In this document: piece by piece, positions 19,400 to 49,493 of the stretch
Position numbering within the stretch: position 1 is the stretch's first letter
Layout: every line of letters starts with the position of its first letter
Sequence record: OR769032.1
Direction: 5' to 3' (one strand)
Source: Escherichia phage JoYop
Length of the DNA stretch: 64,000 bases
The notes under the pieces: generated by a model
The model's database searches: none
What the model was told of the DNA's origin: nothing
The model's input: only the letters and a program-made list of their open reading frames with translations
Program-made: the position numbers and the translations under genes

Positions 19400-19870
19400 T
19401 TAATCATGTTTCCACACCCCATCGGTATTTGACCAAAGTCGCTGATTATCTGATCCTCGCCACAGCTTTTTGGTAGGAAGATTTTTCTCATACTTCCCAT
19501 CAATAATAACATCAACATATTTAAGCATTTCTAGTTGTTTAATATCTTCAAACTTATACCCTGTCCACAACCAAATGCTTTTATTGGGATAAAGATTTTT
19601 AATAGTTTGTACCACAGAGTGAATCACGTCTCTGTTATCAGGATAGAGAGGGTCTCCTCCAGTTATAGTTAATCCTTCTATATAATCATTATTCAAACAT
19701 TCAATTAATTGTTCTAGTGTTTCACCAGTGAATGGAATACCGTTTCTAGCATTCCATGTTGATTTATTATAACACCCTTCGCATTTATGCAAACATCCAG
19801 TAACAAAAAGAACGGTCCTGCACCCAGGACCATTAACAAAATCACAAGGATAAATTCTATCGTAATTCAT
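19400..19870 (-). CDS. nrdG: anaerobic ribonucleotide reductase activating protein (radical SAM)
   Basis: 156 aa; Cys cluster CLHKCEGC; directly downstream of nrdD. Confidence 0.9.
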   Translation of the reverse strand: MNYDRIYPCDFVNGPGCRTVLFVTGCLHKCEGCYNKSTWNARNGIPFTGETLEQLIECLNNDYIEGLTITGGDPLYPDNRDVIHSVVQTIKNLYPNKSIWLWTGYKFEDIKQLEMLKYVDVIIDGKYEKNLPTKKLWRGSDNQRLWSNTDGVWKHD

Positions 19871-21684
19871 TGATGCTTAACCCTATGCATGATTTCTTTA
19901 TTTTTGCCGAGATTAAATCCGCGTTCATTCGGATTTCCCAAATAGCCGCATGTTCTTCTTATGGTATTCATCTTTTTAGGATCAGTTTCTCCACAAATAG
20001 AACAAACAAATCCATTTTCAGTCGGAGTCATTTCATGGGTACTTCCGCATGTAAAACACTTATCTACTGGCATGTTAACACCAAAATAATCTAAATGCTG
20101 TGCAGCATAATCCCATACAGCCTCAAGACCTTTTAGGTTGTTTTTCATATCAGGAAGTTCAACATAAGAAATGTGACCACCTGTCGCAATGAAATGATAT
20201 GGTGCTTCACGAGAAATCTTTTCAAACGGAGTAATATTTTCTTCTACTGAAACATGGAAACTGTTAGTGTACCATCCTTTATCAGTAACATCCTTTACAC
20301 TTCCATATTTTTCGGTATCGAGTTTACAGAAGCGATAACAAAGGTTTTCAGCAGGAGTAGAATACAAGCTAAAAGCAAATCCGGTTCTTTCTGTCCACTG
20401 CTTAAGACGAGCATTCATTTTAGTTAAAATTTCTTGTCCAATATCACGACCAACAAGAATATTCAATTCGTGAATACCAATGTATCCTAGGGACACTGAA
20501 CTTCTACCGTTTTTAAATAACTCAATTATATCGTCATCAGGTTTAAGACGAACCCCGAATGCACCTTCTTGGTAAAGAATAGGAGCAACAGTCGCTTTAA
20601 CTCCTTTTAAGGAACTAATTCTACACATCAATGCTTCAAAACACAAATCCATTCGCTCATTGAATAATTCGGCAAATTTCTGTTCATTGAACTGTGTTCC
20701 AATATAAGAATCTAGCGCAATGCGAGGAAGATTCAGTGTTACAACACCAAGATTATTACGTCCATCAAGAATTTCATTACCAGTCGAATCTTTCCATACA
20801 CTCAAGAAACTGCGGCAACCCATCGGAGAAACAGGAATAGATGAACCGGTGATAGCTTTATTATTCTTAGCTGAAATAATATCAGGATACATCCTTTTGC
20901 TTGCGCACTCTAGAGCAAGCTGCTTAATATCATAGTTCGGATCGTCTTTGTAAAGATTAACGCCTTCTTCGACGAACATAACAAGCTTAGGAAAAATAGG
21001 AGTTATCCCATCACGACCAAGACCTTTAATACGATTTTTCAGAATTGCTTTCTGAATCATTCGTTCAGTCCAGTCAGTTCCCGTACCAAATGTAATTGTT
21101 ACAAAAGGCGTTTGCCCGTTTGAACTAAAGAGAGTATTTACTTCATATTCATAAGCTTGGAATGCATCGTATACGTCTTTTTCTGTTTTAGATTGAGCAT
21201 AATTCAACGCATCAGCGATTTGCCATTTTTCTGCATCCTCGATATGTTTTGCATAGGTGCGTTTAACATAAGGAGAAAGTACTTTATCTACATTCGCAAA
21301 AGTCGTTCCGCCATATTGATGAGAAGCAACTTGTGCAGTAATTTGTGCCATAATTGCAGTAGCAACGCCAATTGATTTAGGAGTTTCAATCTGCGCATTA
21401 CCAAGCTTAAATCCATTCTCAAGCATTCCTTTTAAATCTACTAAACAGCAATTAGTAAATGGAAGAGCAGGTGAATAATCAATATCATGAAAATGGATAA
21501 TTCCGCTTTCATGCGCTTTCATAATAAAAGACGGGACCATATTTTTGGCAATGTGTTTAGACACAATACCAGCCATAAGGTCCCGTTGAGTTGGAAAAAC
21601 ACGAGAATCTTTATTAGCATTCTCGTTTAAAAGGTCTTTATTAGTTTTATGAATTAATCCTTCAATTTCTTTTTCAATTGTCAT
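19867..21684 (-). CDS. nrdD: anaerobic ribonucleotide reductase, glycyl-radical enzyme
   Basis: 605 aa single ORF; C-terminal Cys cluster and RTCGYLG glycyl-radical motif; no intron interruption. Confidence 0.95.
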   Translation of the reverse strand: MTIEKEIEGLIHKTNKDLLNENANKDSRVFPTQRDLMAGIVSKHIAKNMVPSFIMKAHESGIIHFHDIDYSPALPFTNCCLVDLKGMLENGFKLGNAQIETPKSIGVATAIMAQITAQVASHQYGGTTFANVDKVLSPYVKRTYAKHIEDAEKWQIADALNYAQSKTEKDVYDAFQAYEYEVNTLFSSNGQTPFVTITFGTGTDWTERMIQKAILKNRIKGLGRDGITPIFPKLVMFVEEGVNLYKDDPNYDIKQLALECASKRMYPDIISAKNNKAITGSSIPVSPMGCRSFLSVWKDSTGNEILDGRNNLGVVTLNLPRIALDSYIGTQFNEQKFAELFNERMDLCFEALMCRISSLKGVKATVAPILYQEGAFGVRLKPDDDIIELFKNGRSSVSLGYIGIHELNILVGRDIGQEILTKMNARLKQWTERTGFAFSLYSTPAENLCYRFCKLDTEKYGSVKDVTDKGWYTNSFHVSVEENITPFEKISREAPYHFIATGGHISYVELPDMKNNLKGLEAVWDYAAQHLDYFGVNMPVDKCFTCGSTHEMTPTENGFVCSICGETDPKKMNTIRRTCGYLGNPNERGFNLGKNKEIMHRVKHQ

Positions 21685-38146: not shown

Positions 38147-38684
38147 TTACTATTTCCAAAAGTTTATTATTTTTAAGGTAATTAGCCTTTTCTAGGACTT
38201 CAGAAGCATATTTAGAACCTGCTTTAACATTCCATCCCGAATTATAAGAGGATATTGCTTTTCTTATATCGCCCTTATGTATATTTAACCAATAAGAAAG
38301 TTCAATGTACGCCCATGAAGCTGAATTGGATCGTTTATTCAACATTCTTTTTATTTCAGCATCGGTCATATTATAACCAAGTTCCTTAACTCTTGCTCTC
38401 ATAGTAGGCAAATAATTTTGGAACATTCCATAAGCGTGATGCTTTGGTTTAGATTTTAAATTAACTCCGCCAGAGCTTTCTTGCCATAAAATGGCTGCCA
38501 TTATATGACCTAATCCACTCTTATGAACATTTTGGTGTGTTTTATATTTTCCATCCTTAGAAAACTGTTCCCCGAATTGATACGCGTAACGCATGTTATC
38601 GAGTTGGACATTACTGAAAGTATGCTCGGAGCTATGTGCCATCATTGAAATGGCCAATAGACCAGCGAGTAGTGCTTTTCTCAT
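38139..38684 (-). CDS. secreted lytic-transglycosylase-like protein
   Basis: 181 aa; signal peptide; AAILWQESSGG resembles the SLT catalytic Glu-Ser block. Confidence 0.55.
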   Translation of the reverse strand: MRKALLAGLLAISMMAHSSEHTFSNVQLDNMRYAYQFGEQFSKDGKYKTHQNVHKSGLGHIMAAILWQESSGGVNLKSKPKHHAYGMFQNYLPTMRARVKELGYNMTDAEIKRMLNKRSNSASWAYIELSYWLNIHKGDIRKAISSYNSGWNVKAGSKYASEVLEKANYLKNNKLLEIVND

Positions 38685-38691
38685 GTTTGCC

Positions 38692-39153
38692 TCATTGAGT
38701 TTTAATTACTGCTTTAGAAGCCTTTCCTGGTAAACGACGACTGTTGATAATTGCCATCCTGCATTGAAGTGACGGGTCTTTGAACTTCTCATTAGGTTTA
38801 CAAACCGTAAATCCAAGCCAAAGATTTCCATCAGTGATTTCTAAACGTCCAGGGCGATATTCAATTCCATCGATAAAATCTTCATCAATATCAGGACGCG
38901 GAGGCATACTCAGGAATTCATTAACTTCTAAAACATGGTCTTTTATTTTATGGAATAATTCAAAAACATATGTCTCATCAATCTCCCGTTGAATTGCACG
39001 ATCAAGAAGATGCTGAGAATATTTTAGATGAAACGATGAGACCCCTGCTGCTTTTGATGCCTCACGAATCTCATTGTTAATTTGACGAAACTCCGACTCA
39101 AAGTGACGACGAAGCTTATTTCGACGGATAAAAACTTCTGTGTTGATAGTCAT
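38692..39153 (-). CDS. regB: RegB site-specific endoribonuclease
   Basis: 153 aa; matches T4 RegB in length and position; sequence consistent with recall. Confidence 0.85.
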   Translation of the reverse strand: MTINTEVFIRRNKLRRHFESEFRQINNEIREASKAAGVSSFHLKYSQHLLDRAIQREIDETYVFELFHKIKDHVLEVNEFLSMPPRPDIDEDFIDGIEYRPGRLEITDGNLWLGFTVCKPNEKFKDPSLQCRMAIINSRRLPGKASKAVIKTQ

Positions 39154-39179
39154 GTTATTCTCCTCTTAACTGATAGAAA

Positions 39180-39210
39180 AATTATACCACAGTCAAGAGG
39201 AAAAGTAAAC
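39180..39210 (-). promoter_or_regulatory. T4-type early promoter upstream of regB
   Basis: GTTTAC 39205-39210 with tggtataat-like -10. Confidence 0.5.
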
Positions 39211-39212
39211 AG

Positions 39213-39491
39213 TTATTCTTTAAATCTGATCAATTTATTCATAGACTTTGAAACTTCTGCACGAACCTCATGCAGATTTTTGAGCTGTTCAAGACGCTGC
39301 GTATAGTAAGCAATTTCATCTTCTTCAAGACAGTCCTGCGAATCTTCTTTAAGATAGCGTGCATAATCCTGGAAAGCATTACGAATTACTTCTTGGAAGT
39401 CATCAAGACTTTGAATTTTCTTAGGAGCGGCAGATACACGACGAGGTGCAGTATAATACTCATAACCAAACCCTGCGCTTAATTGAGCCAT
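39213..39491 (-). CDS. hypothetical protein (vs.3 position)
   Basis: About 92 aa from [13 protein letters not shown]. Confidence 0.5.
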
Positions 39492-39793
39492 TAGTATTTT
39501 TCCTCTGGTTGGAACACAGCACGGCAAGCCCACATACTTGCTTCTTTGAGTTTCGTTTTAGCAATAGTTAACTGATCGAGGCTTTCGGCGTAATTCTTCG
39601 CGAGTTCATCATCTTCACAGCTATCAAATGCTTCCCAAAATTCATCGTATAAAGCATCAAAGATAAGTCCTAAACGAACTTCAGCGTCTTTGATAGCATT
39701 TACTTTACCGATTTTTTCGTCGGTATGTGGCTTATAACCTTTAATATCTTCAATCATATTTGACTTCCTCACCAGTGCATAAATCGTATTCAA
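39491..39793 (-). CDS. hypothetical small helical protein (vs.4 position; Acb2-type sponge candidate)
   Basis: 100 aa; second gene after regB, the position of T4 vs.4. Confidence 0.45.
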
Positions 39794-39971
39794 CTAAACG
39801 AATAGGTTCATGAATGCCATATCCTTGAACAGATATTTCTGTCGTAGGATAAATTCCATCAATATCACCCATATTCCACGCTTCATTAAATTGCTGTTCG
39901 CCTGAATTACTAAACCACTCGGCGAAAGCATTTAGCACATCTTTAGAACCTTCAATAATTATCTTTGCCAT
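39750..39971 (-). CDS. hypothetical protein
   Basis: 73-aa ORF. Confidence 0.45.
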   Translation of the reverse strand: MAKIIIEGSKDVLNAFAEWFSNSGEQQFNEAWNMGDIDGIYPTTEISVQGYGIHEPIRLVEYDLCTGEEVKYD

Positions 39972-40333
39972 TACAGACTCTCGGTAAAGGTACGAGCGAT
40001 AACGTCGCGCTGCTGTTCCGGAGTCAGAGAGTTAAAGCGAACTGCATAACCTGATACACGGATGGTCAGCTGCGGATATTTTTCCGGATGCTTAACTGCA
40101 TCTTCCAGAGTTTCACGACGCAGAACGTTAACGTTCAGGTGCTGACCACCTTCAATTTTAACTGTAGGCTGTGGCTCAATTTCAATTTCACGGGCATGCA
40201 AACCATAGAAAATTTCTGGGTCTACAAAAGAGTCCTCTTTAAAGGTTTTAGAAACGATAATTCGTGCTTGAATACCATCTTCAAAATAAATAGTACCTTT
40301 GTGCGTGCCTTCAAGAATTTGATATGCTTTCAT
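39971..40333 (-). CDS. autonomous glycyl-radical cofactor (GrcA/YfiD-like)
   Basis: 120 aa; C-terminal [28 protein letters not shown] carries the RVSGY glycyl-radical motif. Confidence 0.8.
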
Positions 40334-40340
40334 ATAAACC

Positions 40341-40721
40341 TCAATTAGAAAATAAATTTATCCAAGATTGTTCTTTAATTAAAAATGGCTCAGAATCATA
40401 TGCCATTAAACTCTGGGTAATTAATCCTTTAAATGGTCCATCAATAAATTCCATTGTAAAATATGGAATTTTATTCATTAACCGTGCATTAGGAGCAGTG
40501 CACAAAACTCTGCATCCTTTGAATACGCCTTTCTGCAATTTATACTGCTTAGGATAAAATTCGCTCAAAATGTTGTTATTTGCCAAAATTTCAAAATGAT
40601 TCACCAATTTATTTTTAATAGTTTTTGGCGAAAAATAAAGATATTCGAAAAGCTGTGCATCTGTCATCATTGCATTCCGATTACGAAAAACTGTGGACGA
40701 GTAATACCACCAATGCAGCAT
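40341..40721 (-). CDS. hypothetical protein
   Basis: 126-aa ORF; true start uncertain. Confidence 0.45.
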
Positions 40722-41206
40722 TTACTTTTACAGCAATGTTGCACAGTGTCAATATGAATGTCGTAAATCTTATCCATATCAGGAGATTTAACGGGCTCAT
40801 CAATTATATACAAAATTCGTGAAAGCGATAAACCTCTGAACTTGCTTCCTTTATTACCAATAAAACTGCGCACAGAATCAGTAAATAAACGAAAACGTAT
40901 ATCATCGTTAGAATAACGCGAAAATTCCTTTTTAATGTTATTTGCAGAAATTTTAGCGTAAGCTGAAGTATTAGAAAGAACAATAACTGTTCCGCCATCA
41001 TACAACCAATTGGCAGCAAAATTAGTCACAGCAATTGATTTACCGGATTGACGTCCACCGTCAAGTCGAAGTGTGCAGTACTGTTTAAGTAAGTCTTCAA
41101 ATGGCGGGATATATTCGTTTTTACAAATTTCTTCTACTCTAGCATCAGAATGGTGTGTAAAAGCATTCATCAGGGATAGATAAGGACCAGTCAAAAATGT
41201 TCTCAT
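40667..41206 (-). CDS. small P-loop protein
   Basis: Start at ATG 41204-41206 (MRTFLTGPY); Walker A-like GGRQSGKS and Walker B-like ILYIIDEP. Confidence 0.5.
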   Translation of the reverse strand: MRTFLTGPYLSLMNAFTHHSDARVEEICKNEYIPPFEDLLKQYCTLRLDGGRQSGKSIAVTNFAANWLYDGGTVIVLSNTSAYAKISANNIKKEFSRYSNDDIRFRLFTDSVRSFIGNKGSKFRGLSLSRILYIIDEPVKSPDMDKIYDIHIDTVQHCCKSKCCIGGITRPQFFVIGMQ

Positions 41207-41270
41207 TTTGTTCTCTCTAGATTTGGGCCATTCCATGGCGCATGAATTGTCCATTCCTGTATTTACCCCT

Positions 41271-41316
41271 CCAAGTAATTATGAATATACTATCACAATT
41301 CTAGGAGAAAGTAAAC
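41271..41316 (-). promoter_or_regulatory. T4-type early promoter
   Basis: GTTTAC 41311-41316 with a -10 block in 41271-41295. Confidence 0.45.
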
Positions 41317-41318
41317 TG

Positions 41319-41621
41319 TTATTTACCTTTAATTACTTTAGCTGCTTCGATAGCCGCTTGCTGAAGGTCATCCATAGACATACCGAATTTAGAAGCAAAG
41401 TTATCAATTTTCTTTTCGACAGCATTCAAAGGCTTGGCCTGTTTACCTTCATTAGCGCCAGGAAGAGCGAGAATACGCTCTTTGTCAATATAAAGGCTTA
41501 CAAGTTTCTTACGGTCTTTATCGGACAAATCATGAAATGAATGGGCCTTTTTATTTATAGCGGCTTCTAATTTACCTGCACTCACTCGCGCTTCAGTAAT
41601 AAATTCTTGATAGGTTTTCAT
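41319..41621 (-). CDS. ipII: internal protein II-like
   Basis: 100 aa; N-terminal capsid-targeting sequence MKTYQEFITEA; length matches T4 IPII. Confidence 0.75.
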   Translation of the reverse strand: MKTYQEFITEARVSAGKLEAAINKKAHSFHDLSDKDRKKLVSLYIDKERILALPGANEGKQAKPLNAVEKKIDNFASKFGMSMDDLQQAAIEAAKVIKGK

Positions 41622-41661
41622 ATGTTTCCTTTAATGTAAATAGATTTGAGTATTCGTTTTA

Positions 41662-42240
41662 TTAGGAATTACGGGCTGCATTAGCAACGGCGTAAGCGTA
41701 CTGAATATTGACGTCTTTAAACGTACCTTTGGAGGTATCTATTTCTGCCTTAAAGCCGCCTTTAGTCATAACATCGGCAAATTCTTTACGGAAAGCCATT
41801 GCATCAAGACCTTTCCATGATGATTTATGCTTAGCAAATTCAAGACCAGCGTAGTTGACAGCCTTAGCTAATTTATTATCAATAACCCATTTACCGGCTT
41901 TAGGTACAAACACTGGGCCTTTCTGTTTAGAGAATAGTTTTAAATTCCAACGACGAAGGTCACCGTCAGCTTTAACAAAAGCTGCGTCCAAGTTACTAGC
42001 AACAACATCTTGAATATGGCCAAATTTAAGCCCATCAACTTCAATATTTAGATCAGTACGCCAGCGAAGTCCTTCCCAAGCGAAAGCTTTAAAGTCAGAA
42101 GCTTTTGTAGCTAAGTACCGTTCAATAGGAGCCGTTTTAGGGTCAAAGCCGTTTCCCGATCGATAGGTCCACTCATCTTTATTAATGCCTTTGGCCTTTT
42201 CCACAGAAGCTTCAGCGATAAATTCTTTATACGTTTTCAT
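41662..42240 (-). CDS. ipIII: internal protein III-like
   Basis: 192 aa; N-terminus MKTYKEFIAEA; length matches T4 IPIII. Confidence 0.75.
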   Translation of the reverse strand: MKTYKEFIAEASVEKAKGINKDEWTYRSGNGFDPKTAPIERYLATKASDFKAFAWEGLRWRTDLNIEVDGLKFGHIQDVVASNLDAAFVKADGDLRRWNLKLFSKQKGPVFVPKAGKWVIDNKLAKAVNYAGLEFAKHKSSWKGLDAMAFRKEFADVMTKGGFKAEIDTSKGTFKDVNIQYAYAVANAARNS

Positions 42241-42259
42241 GTGTTTCCTTGTTTGTTTT

Positions 42260-42298
42260 GATAGAGTAATTATACCATATTAATACTTAAGCGTAAAC
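42260..42298 (-). promoter_or_regulatory. T4-type early promoter
   Basis: GTTTAC 42293-42298 with tggtataat -10. Confidence 0.45.
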
Positions 42299-42301
42299 TG
42301 T

Positions 42302-42562
42302 TTAAGCTTTACCGCCAGAAATAATTCCGAAGTTGTTAAAATCGTATCCAATATCGTCAACATCTACTTTAGGGCTTGCTACAACATAAGCAATTTCACT
42401 ACGTTTTGCATAGGTGTTTATTTCTTTACCATCACCGCCTAGGAAAGAATACCCATTACGTTTTAATGAGCCAAAGTCTTCCGCATCACCAATGAAAGCT
42501 TTAACTTTAAATTTAGGACCTTTGGCATCTGCTTCAGTGATAAATTCTTGATACATTTTCAT
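42302..42562 (-). CDS. internal-protein-like small protein
   Basis: 86 aa; N-terminus MKMYQEFITEA matches the IP capsid-targeting motif. Confidence 0.6.
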   Translation of the reverse strand: MKMYQEFITEADAKGPKFKVKAFIGDAEDFGSLKRNGYSFLGGDGKEINTYAKRSEIAYVVASPKVDVDDIGYDFNNFGIISGGKA

Positions 42563-48026: not shown

Positions 48027-48053
48027 AAAAAGCCCCAACCTTTCGGTTGGGGC
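48027..48053 (-). terminator. rho-independent terminator
   Basis: Minus strand GCCCCAACC-GAAA-GGUUGGGGC followed by UUUUU. Confidence 0.7.
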
Positions 48054-48059
48054 TAAGCC

Positions 48060-48385
48060 TTGCGGCAACCTTGTCGGGGTTCCACCTGCTAAGGCAAGTG
48101 TTTGTACGAAACGCCGGGATTCGAACCCGGTTATCAAGCAGTTGACGCTACTCAATATTTTTAAAAGGCCATATCTCGACCATATCCGAACGTTCCGTCA
48201 AAAACGCTACTCGGCTTACGGCAAAGATATTTCCTCGAATCGATAATTCGGTGCGCCGTTTCTGCTGTGATATAAGGGAACATTAACAGATCGTAAAGAT
48301 TTGTTAATGCCGGTCCTTAAACAGGGAGCATCAGTCCGACGACTTACCGGTAGCGACCCGGTTTCTTAATATTCTTTTAAAGCAT
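48060..48385 (-). ncRNA. structured non-coding RNA region distal to the tRNA cluster (possible T4 stable-RNA homolog)
   Basis: No convincing ORF; tRNA-like T-arm gggattcgaacccgg at 48116-48130; bounded by terminator and tRNA-Arg side gene. Confidence 0.35.
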
Positions 48386-48734: not shown

Positions 48735-48811
<77 letters not shown>

Positions 48812-48815
48812 TATT

Positions 48816-48890
48816 TGGCGGACATGCATGGATTCGAACCATGGACCAATTGATTAACAGTCAACTGCTCTACCACTGAGCTACACATCC
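48816..48890 (-). tRNA. tRNA-Asn (anticodon GUU)
   Basis: GGATGTG...GCTCAGTGGTAGAGC D-arm, loop CTGTTAA, T-arm CATGGTTCGAATCCATG, CCA end. Confidence 0.8.
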
Positions 48891-48894
48891 AAAT

Positions 48895-48981
48895 TGGTGG
48901 GGAGTGATGGAGTCGAACCACCCGAGTCGCAATGACAATGGATTTACAGTCCACACCGCTACCTCTACGGGATAACTCCCC
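48895..48981 (-). tRNA. tRNA-Tyr (anticodon GUA), long variable arm
   Basis: Loop CTGTAAA; class II variable arm; acceptor GGGGAGT/ACTCCCC; CCA end. Confidence 0.75.
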
Positions 48982-48994
48982 TTAATTCTTAATT

Positions 48995-49069
48995 TGGTGG
49001 CCCTGGGTGGAATTGAACCACCATCTGGCGATTATGAGTCGCTTGCTTGAACCTTCCAGCTACAGGGCC
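48995..49069 (-). tRNA. tRNA with CAU anticodon (Met, or Ile if the wobble C is modified as in T4)
   Basis: Loop CTCATAA; acceptor GGCCCTG/CAGGGCC; T-arm GGTGGTTCAATTCCACC. Confidence 0.75.
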
Positions 49070-49070
49070 T

Positions 49071-49146
49071 TGGTGCTGATTGACGGAATCGAACCGCCGA
49101 CCTTCTCATTACAAGTGAGTTGCTCTACCTACTGAGCTAAATCAGC
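49071..49146 (-). tRNA. tRNA-Thr (anticodon UGU)
   Basis: Loop CTTGTAA; acceptor GCTGATT/AATCAGC; T-arm GGCGGTTCGATTCCGTC. Confidence 0.8.
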
Positions 49147-49150
49147 AAAA

Positions 49151-49241
49151 CTGGCGGAGGCGATAGGATTTGAACCTATGAGTCGCCGGAGCGACTGCCG
49201 GTTTTCAAGACCGGTGCATTAAACCACTCTGCCACGCCTCC
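49151..49241 (-). tRNA. tRNA-Ser (anticodon UGA), long variable arm
   Basis: Loop CTTGAAA in CCGGT/ACCGG stem; class II variable arm; acceptor GGAGGCG/CGCCTCC. Confidence 0.8.
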
Positions 49242-49243
49242 AG

Positions 49244-49317
49244 TCTCCATACAAGGATTTGAACCTTGGACCTCCTGATCCCAAATCAGGCGCTCTACCA
49301 AACTGAGCTACACGGAG
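49244..49317 (-). tRNA. tRNA-Pro (anticodon UGG), CCA not encoded
   Basis: Loop TTTGGGA; C1-G72 acceptor; 3' end abuts tRNA-Ser without CCA. Confidence 0.75.
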
Positions 49318-49327
49318 TAAATTAAAT

Positions 49328-49401
<74 letters not shown>

Positions 49402-49406
49402 AAATT

Positions 49407-49493
49407 TGGTGCGAGAAGTGGGACTCGAACCCACAAGGAAATCATTCCGCAGCATTTTAAGTGCTGTGCCTTTACCAATTTGACCATTCTCGC
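49407..49493 (-). tRNA. tRNA-Leu (anticodon UAA), long variable arm
   Basis: Loop CTTAAAA in CAGCA/TGCTG stem; class II variable arm; T-arm GTGGGTTCGAGTCCCAC. Confidence 0.8.

Follow-up and report, generated by a model that had tools for sequence, protein, structure and literature searches.

Escherichia phage JoYop (sequence record OR769032.1) carries a small open reading frame (ORF) whose product ends in a glycyl-radical domain, which raises the question of what a phage would do with such a protein, and from where it obtained the DNA that encodes it. The ORF lies at 39971-40333, the exact positions given in the first-pass annotation of this DNA, on the minus strand of the 64,000-nucleotide stretch analysed here (the window), runs from ATG to TAA and encodes 120 amino acids. 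It is identified below as the vs.6 gene of T4-like phages, and proves to be a mosaic of two halves, the first of phage type and the second nearly identical to Escherichia coli grcA. The best explanation of the whole, and one in which we have good confidence, is that the protein is the Vs.6/Y06I spare part for pyruvate formate-lyase (PFL), and that the half of the gene encoding its radical domain has been repeatedly overwritten by host grcA.

Identity of the gene

The protein is 100% identical to its phage T4 counterpart (120/120 amino acids, tblastn). The gene order vs.7-vs.6-vs.5 is conserved in T4_ev151, RB69, CC31 and JK45; vs.6 stands upstream of regB in T4_ev151 and CC31, regB being located at 38692-39153 in the window; and the gene is named vs.6 in the records of RB69, CC31 and RB32. 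Judged by protein identity and gene order, the ORF is the orthologue of T4 Vs.6. We infer that T4 Vs.6 is in turn the Y06I of the biochemical literature, from its size, its motif, and the fact that it is the sole small Gly_radical ORF annotated in T4. The window itself comes from a T4-like phage (Tequatrovirus), and the 20 kb around vs.6 are 94-97% identical to known isolates. In Nolan et al. 2006 (PMC1524935), vs.6 is conserved in 6/6 of the T4-like genomes examined.

At the DNA level, database phages reach at most 98.9% identity to vs.6 (megablast), with 756 phage records matching and 744 covering at least 80% of the gene. The T4_ev151 copy, at 98.9%, is annotated 'Autonomous glycyl radical cofactor', an annotation given in many phage records, and RefSeq calls the phage orthologues GrcA. 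Homologues found with tblastn occur in 1,588 phage records, including those of T5-like phages, Aeromonas phages and one jumbo Yersinia phage. The PHROGs family phrog_1209 matches the protein over residues 1-120 with E=1.2e-62, and carries the label 'unknown function'. vs.6 is an already known feature, and the gene itself adds nothing new.

Mosaic structure of vs.6

The 5' half of the gene (gene nucleotides 1-178, amino acids 1-59/60; 40156-40333, minus strand) is of phage type, and only 83/178 of its nucleotides (46.6%) are identical to E. coli grcA. The 3' half (gene nucleotides 179-363, amino acids 61-120 and the stop codon; 39971-40155, minus strand) appears to be host-derived: 181/185 nucleotides (97.8%) are identical to E. 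coli grcA, and the match is present in all 5,426 complete E. coli genomes. The 5' half is absent from these genomes, in which only gene nucleotides 179-363 find a counterpart. A maximum chi-square test places the breakpoint after gene nucleotide 178, and 0/2000 permutations reach the observed value.

The four differences from grcA in the 3' half are all synonymous, and are found at gene nucleotides 282 (40052 in the window), 351, 354 and 357. The first of these is the single difference in the core of the inferred conversion tract (gene nucleotides 181-340; 39994-40153, minus strand), where 159/160 nucleotides are identical to E. coli. The other three are within the last 12 nucleotides, in a phage-lineage-specific tail that comprises the last 20 nucleotides before the stop codon (39974-39993, minus strand) and lies outside the core. 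In this tail the Tequatroviruses and Mosigviruses share ...GAGAGTCTG/A and the Jiaodaviruses share ...ACTTTCACAGAGGCACTA, while all of the sampled hosts have GAAAGCCTG or GAAAGTCTG.

The two halves also have different compositions. The guanine-cytosine (GC) content is 0.35 in the 5' half and 0.51 in the 3' half, and the GC content at third codon positions (GC3) is 0.23 and 0.45, respectively; for reference, E. coli grcA has a GC3 of 0.43 and the whole window a GC content of 0.349. The 3' half is in the top 0.36% by GC of the window's 180-nucleotide stretches. High GC alone is not a sign of host origin, because the window is also GC-rich in its tRNA cluster and in a segment at 48031-48224, which has no E. 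coli match. Within 27500-52499, nothing other than the 3' half of vs.6 resembles E. coli chromosomes in a megablast search. A search with these 25 kb found no further host-like DNA on E. coli chromosomes, since it gave 10,833 chromosomal places, as did a search with vs.6 only.

The degree of identity can be calibrated on the bacteria themselves. Over the same 180 nucleotides, the identity of E. coli to a sister Escherichia species is 98.3%, that to Citrobacter 93% and that to Salmonella 84%, so the phage segment is as close to E. coli as is another Escherichia species. Both the permutation test of the breakpoint and the comparison with 86 host alleles speak against a chance or compositional artefact in the host-like half, and this reading was rejected.

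The 3' half and the host genus

The host sample consisted of grcA from 80 species-representative genomes plus five Klebsiella-type alleles, which were collected through a protein named K. variicola GrcA by NCBI; the bootstrap used 86 host genes. The most telling comparison is with Klebsiella phage Shinkou, a member of Jiaodavirus, which is the sister genus of Tequatrovirus within the Tevenvirinae. Identity between the 5' halves of the two genera is only 72%; the 5' half of Shinkou is phage-like (GC3 0.18, 72% identical to the 5' half in the window), while its 3' half has a GC3 of 0.60. Over the core 160 nucleotides, Shinkou is 98.1% identical to the Klebsiella allele and 88% to that of E. coli; for the window the figure is 99.4% to E. 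coli, and for phage Roth79 it is 98.1% to Klebsiella. Of the 21 sites by which the grcA of E. coli can be told from that of Klebsiella, the window agrees with E. coli in 20 and Shinkou with Klebsiella in 18. Roth79 and one Raoultella phage pattern with Shinkou, and RB69, JK45 and Killian pattern with T4.

When the E. coli allele is used as the query, 629 phage records match at 95-99%, and those sampled are Tequatroviruses and Mosigviruses of Escherichia, Shigella and Yersinia, including T4, T2 and RB69; the Klebsiella phages are at 86-90%, inside the 80-90% band (101 records). When the Klebsiella allele is used, 108 phage records match at 95-99% and 32 at 90-95%, the sampled ones being all Klebsiella or Raoultella phages; those sampled at 84-87% are E. 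coli-type phages, inside the 80-90% band (521 records). In 92-100% of bootstrap replicates, the host allele closest to a phage allele belongs to the expected genus, and for the window it is from Escherichia in 1000/1000. In a neighbour-joining tree, the phage alleles nest inside two host-genus clades, with bootstrap support of 0.92-1.0. The synonymous divergence (dS) likewise shows that the two halves of the gene have separate histories: between T4-type vs.6 and RB69 it amounts to 0.66 for the 5' half but to 0.12 for the 3' half, with each 3' half about 0.1 from E. coli, and between the window and phage Killian the order is reversed (0.21 for the 5' half, 0.33 for the 3' half).

It could be argued that grcA was captured only once, long ago, and has been kept by selection, or that exchange has been among phages only. 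The C-terminal 60 amino acids are extremely conserved in all hosts, which implies strong purifying selection, and co-infecting T-even phages recombine freely, so that a single allele could be passed around the phages of E. coli. However, 56/60 codons are identical to those of E. coli, compared to only 35/60 for Salmonella, and selection at the level of the protein cannot preserve synonymous sites. Nor can a single capture yield the E. coli state in one phage genus and the Klebsiella state in its sister, or place phage alleles inside two different host clades. The GC3 of the 3' half moreover goes with that of the host: it is 0.45 in E. coli phages and 0.43 in their host, and 0.60 in Klebsiella phages and 0.67 in theirs. 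For the two-clade pattern a single capture is already contradicted, and we consider this the least probable of the alternatives discussed here. The preferred reading is repeated replacement from host to phage.

In the host sample there was no sign of recent transfer for CC31, 05F, KMB43, the T5-like phages, Riv-10, PX29 and the jumbo Yersinia phage, for which the best host identity is 69-85%. The GC3 of the 3' half is lower where there is no near-identical host allele, being 0.28 in Karamvirus CC31, 0.37 in Slopekvirus 05F and 0.12 in the jumbo Yersinia phage. Such values are as expected for lineages that had escaped conversion and then drifted towards phage composition.

Two further homologues deserve mention. 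T5-like Tequintavirus phages have a 122-amino acid homologue (nucleotides 1501-1869 of the locus) with the C-terminus ...TFTQAM, tRNA-flanked in HildyBeyeler; this end seems closer to PflB than to GrcA, and the homologue may derive from pflB rather than grcA. On the bacterial side, Klebsiella sp. WOUb02 has a full-length grcA on a 275-kb record labelled plasmid unnamed4, which may be a chromid or a misassigned replicon.

Origin of the mosaic

The residual similarity in the N-terminal half, and the fact that the alignment to the NCBIfam model TIGR04365 reaches residue 20, support the view that the whole of vs.6 would be a grcA homologue, old and diverged, that T4-like phages carry as a resident gene. 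Comparison of the alleles indicates that its 3' half was replaced from the host on at least two occasions, and probably on more. In the proposed scheme, the radical-domain half (approximately gene nucleotides 179-345) would be overwritten again and again with grcA from whichever genus is the host at the time. The likeliest route is homologous recombination with fragments of host DNA during infection, or gene conversion by them. Conversion of a copy already resident would fit well with the 5' boundary at codon 60/61 and with the lineage-specific last 12-20 nucleotides, since the tract is then bounded where homology ends. Repeated illegitimate insertion fits these boundaries less well. The shared 5' boundary roughly coincides with the start of the structured domain of YfiD, as GrcA is also known.

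Since divergence among the host alleles is congruent between the gene's two halves (Citrobacter 93%/89%, Salmonella 84%/84%), and since the phage 5' half is not found in E. coli genomes, the donor is taken to be the host, and a transfer in the opposite direction is excluded.

In T-even phages, cytosine is replaced by hydroxymethylcytosine. In our view it is nevertheless more probable than not that, in spite of this modified DNA and the destruction of host DNA, the radical-domain half of vs.6 is repeatedly replaced in T-even-type phages by the chromosomal grcA of the genus being infected. No description of the mosaic or of a genus-specific host patch was found in the searchable literature, although Wagner 2001 and the 2003 T4 genome review may note the nucleotide identity to yfiD. 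If the proposal is true, host-to-phage homologous gene conversion would be an ongoing and measurable process in strictly lytic phages, and the patch of about 170 nucleotides would be a record of the recent host genus of a lineage, which keeps the spare part matched to the PflA and PflB of the host. Copies that have become too diverged (Karamvirus, Slopekvirus, Krischvirus) would then have escaped conversion and ameliorated towards phage composition. The host patch would be a clean natural example of recurrent sequence transfer from host to phage in strictly lytic T-even-type phages, and could serve as a locus for assaying host-phage recombination, and as a marker of host history in the typing of T4-like therapeutic phages.

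The glycyl-radical domain

The sole Pfam domain of Vs.6 is Gly_radical (PF01228), which matches residues 61-101 with E=2.8e-18 and 66.8 bits (cutoff 22.2). The best structure match is PDB 6OWR, E. coli GrcA/YfiD, with E=8.6e-42 (phmmer), and the next is pyruvate formate-lyase, with residues 58-120 of Vs.6 aligned on 697-759 of PflB (E=5e-26). The first-pass annotation had assigned the protein to the GrcA/YfiD family from its RVSGYAVRF motif, and the Pfam and 6OWR matches, which go far beyond what chance would give, confirm this. The motif is formed by amino acids 92-100 (40034-40060, minus strand). On alignment its glycine is conserved: G95 (codon GGT, 40049-40051, minus strand) aligns with the radical glycines G102 of GrcA and G734 of PflB, in the numbering used in PMC12338860.

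Residues 61-120 of Vs.6 are identical to residues 68-127 of GrcA (60/60, pairwise alignment). [quoted passage not shown] In this N-terminal half 17/60 amino acids of Vs.6 are identical to GrcA, the alignments extending over residues 20-120 for TIGR04365 and residues 22-120 for phmmer to 6OWR.

A probable spare part for pyruvate formate-lyase

As Knappe's group showed, both YfiD and Y06I are radicalised by the activating enzyme of PFL (PFL-AE) and restore oxygen-cleaved PFL in vitro (Wagner et al. 2001, Biochem Biophys Res Commun 285:456, PMID 11444864, as cited in PMC8683613 and PMC13450708). They are the only two validated spare-part proteins (PMC8683613; repeated in the 2026 review PMC13450708). 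The T4 homologue that the first-pass annotation mentioned as already described is this Y06I. The annotation had also left open the repair role during infection; part of the answer was already published, namely the rescue of PFL in vitro.

Based on this activity, the following scheme can be proposed. The host activating enzyme PflA (PFL-AE) would install the radical on G95 of the C-terminal domain of Vs.6, and the radicalised domain would slot into host PflB whose C-terminal radical loop had been cut off by oxygen; the repaired PFL would then resume production of acetyl-CoA and formate. T-even phages shut off host transcription and degrade host DNA, and it is for this reason that a copy of the phage's own would make sense: the infected cell would be unable to make new PflB or GrcA, and a copy driven by a phage promoter would be useful. 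Both this rationale and the benefit in vivo are what we infer. The likely client in vivo is the PflB of the host, by way of its PflA, rather than phage NrdD; the exact identity to the host and the PFL type of the radical domain argue for this. As T4 Y06I, the protein belongs to the only pair of spare parts for a glycyl-radical enzyme that have been validated by biochemistry.

The divergent N-terminal half allows a different reading, in which Vs.6 is a decoy or modulator that competes for PflA or occupies PflB, and so damps or rewires host fermentation. This half, which in YfiD governs the binding of cleaved PFL and the efficiency of activation, is only about 28% identical to that of the host, and the ratio of nonsynonymous to synonymous divergence (dN/dS) in the 5' half is approximately 0.07-0.14 between phage genera. 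The latter implies strong purifying selection and suggests a phage-specific property. On the other hand, PFL activity was restored in vitro by the T4 protein, which has the identical sequence (Wagner 2001, cited in PMC8683613), and the catalytic glycine and the whole radical domain are kept exactly, which would be needless in a pure inhibitor. A decoy is very unlikely on these grounds, and a PFL spare part is preferred.

NrdD as a possible client

The first-pass annotation had pointed out that the phage also encodes the glycyl-radical enzyme NrdD together with its activase NrdG, and the Pfam analysis agrees. The nrdD gene (19867-21684, minus strand; anaerobic ribonucleotide reductase, 605 amino acids) matches PF13597 with E=1.8e-171 and has the motif RRTCGYLG, and nrdG (19400-19870, minus strand; 156 amino acids) encodes the radical S-adenosylmethionine (radical-SAM) activase of NrdD, with matches to Fer4_12/Radical_SAM.

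Vs.6 could be imagined as a spare part for the NrdD of the phage, radicalised by NrdG, taking the place of an NrdD C-terminus cleaved by oxygen, and protecting the supply of deoxynucleoside triphosphates during infection. The presence of nrdD and nrdG in the same window is in keeping with this, as is the arrangement in other phages: Aeromonas phage PX29 (3447-nucleotide locus) has the order nrdD-nrdG-vs.6-nrdC-nrdH, and Yersinia jumbo phage fHe-Yen9-04 (3345-nucleotide locus), whose lineage is unrelated to that of PX29, has nrdD-hyp-grcA-like-hyp-hyp-nrdG, so that its homologue is between nrdD and nrdG. A role in nucleotide metabolism was guessed from the shared Pfam domain in Nolan et al. 2006 (PMC1524935), and spare parts for glycyl-radical enzymes beyond PFL are left as still possible in PMC8683613 and PMC13450708.

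The sequences of the two proteins argue otherwise. The radical domain of Vs.6 is of the PFL type and 60/60 identical to that of host GrcA, whereas BLASTP of Vs.6 against the NrdD of the window gives no significant similarity (E=2.6), a Pfam scan gives no match to PF13597 (NRDD) in Vs.6, and none of the 33 PDB matches of Vs.6 is an NrdD chain. The motifs differ (RVSGYAV in Vs.6, RRTCGYLG in NrdD), and the glycine of NrdD follows closely on a Cys-rich segment (CFTCGS...CSICGE), for which Vs.6 has no equivalent. Membership of the radical domain of class III ribonucleotide reductase (NrdD) was rejected for Vs.6 on the BLASTP, PF13597 and PDB results. Even the nrdG-adjacent homologue of PX29 still has a PFL-like C-terminus, ending in TFTQSM, and in the window vs.6 is 18 kb from nrdD and nrdG. 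With the PflA and PflB of the host as partners, tracking of the host grcA allele would be expected. NrdD repair is in our opinion very unlikely, though the least improbable of the alternatives, and the nrd clustering is read as an anaerobic-metabolism gene neighbourhood rather than as a sign of NrdD repair.

Strength of the combined explanation

Several observations weigh against the combined explanation, a PFL spare part with a radical-domain half that has been overwritten from the host. On the evolutionary side, host tracking is seen in two host/phage clade pairs only, and the Klebsiella donor species is known only via the NCBI protein name (K. variicola). For the 3' halves of Salmonella, Enterobacter sichuanensis and Citrobacter amalonaticus there is no phage allele at 95% or above; the top phage matches listed are at 83.8%, 86.3% and 92.3%, respectively, all of them from E. 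coli-type phages, and represent background identity between hosts. Likewise, the host sample contains no near-identical allele for Karamvirus, Slopekvirus, Krischvirus, T5-like or Aeromonas phages. The dS values carry wide errors, as the segments are short (160-185 nucleotides). Recombination between phages may partly explain the uniformity among E. coli phages.

On the functional side, the searchable literature yielded no phenotype in vivo for vs.6, and the benefit at the time of infection is presumed. The homologues inside the nrdD/nrdG cluster of two other phage lineages hint at a connection with anaerobic ribonucleotide reduction. The NCBIfam equivalog model TIGR04365 (spare_glycyl) gives 153.3 bits, under its cutoff of 170, because the N-terminal half of Vs.6 is divergent and the model is tuned to bacterial GrcA; this lowers the claim to a bacterial-type GrcA equivalog, not the claim to a Y06I orthologue. 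The gene is filed as a Vs.6/Y06I orthologue that works like GrcA, and not as a strict NCBIfam equivalog of the bacterial type. Given its divergent N-terminal half, the phage protein could differ quantitatively from YfiD.

Neighbouring genes and other features of the window

The vs.6 ORF is tightly packed between vs.7 and vs.5. A GAGG Shine-Dalgarno sequence (40339-40342, minus strand) is found 5 nucleotides upstream of its ATG, and its stop codon overlaps the start of the next gene as TAATG. The ORF list has overlapping ORFs for vs.7 (40341-40721) and vs.8 (40667-41254) on the minus strand; alignment to the T4_ev151 annotation suggests that vs.7 probably starts at an internal ATG, giving 40341-40670, and neither the vs.7 nor the vs.8 protein has a Pfam match. 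A scan for promoters and terminators over 38500-42500 found sites that are no more numerous than in shuffled sequence; going upstream from vs.6, the first promoter-like site on the minus strand is at 42297-42269, and the scan is not informative on expression.

The tRNA cluster mentioned above (48735-49493, minus strand) consists of 9 genes, for Arg(tct), Asn, Tyr, Met(cat), Thr, Ser, Pro, Gly and Leu; it appears to depart from the canonical T4 set by having Asn and Tyr. The tRNA-Tyr region (about 48892-48985) has a 90.5% match to an E. coli plasmid record, and the 25-kb query finds about 259 additional plasmid places. The GC-rich segment at 48031-48224 (GC at least 0.506) lies downstream of this cluster in the minus-strand sense, at a place where the annotation of a related phage has nothing but tiny hypothetical ORFs. 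The segment matches no Rfam family at gathering score; we presume that it may correspond to the T4 stable RNAs C/D.

Comparison with known systems

The closest known system is T4 Vs.6/Y06I, with an identical protein, the same genomic position and the same neighbours; vs.6 of the window is the same gene in another Tequatrovirus isolate. E. coli GrcA (YfiD, nuclear magnetic resonance structure 6OWR) is likewise a small standalone protein, identical in its C-terminal domain, and the activity reported for it in vitro in PMC8683613 is the same as that of T4 Y06I. Its N-terminal half shares residual motifs with Vs.6, namely ARxIVxK, ED..V and RE(I/V)...E. The phage protein differs from GrcA in being 7 residues shorter, in its N-terminal half, in its score under the TIGR04365 cutoff, in the phage codon usage of its 5' half, and in belonging to a phage transcription unit instead of being under the host grcA promoter.

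The C-terminal radical domain of PflB (PDB 1H16 etc.) is the part of that enzyme for which a spare part substitutes. Vs.6 has neither the catalytic barrel of PflB nor Cys418/Cys419, and its DNA is nearer to grcA than to pflB, grcA being the 95-99% match and other chromosomal matches being weaker. The radical domain of T4 NrdD is similar to Vs.6 in that it matches Pfam Gly_radical, is oxygen-sensitive and occurs in the same phage; it differs from Vs.6 in its motif, in the Cys-rich segment before the glycine and in having the dedicated activase NrdG.

A parallel for the mosaic may be found in cyanophage psbA and other auxiliary metabolic genes, in which intragenic recombination between host and phage reportedly takes place (Zeidner et al. 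2005; Sullivan et al. 2006). As in vs.6, the phage copy of psbA is said to keep host metabolism running, and patches of the gene to be exchanged with the host copy. The differences are that vs.6 belongs to a T-even phage, and that its patch is a sharply bounded half-gene which tracks the host genus between sister phage genera.

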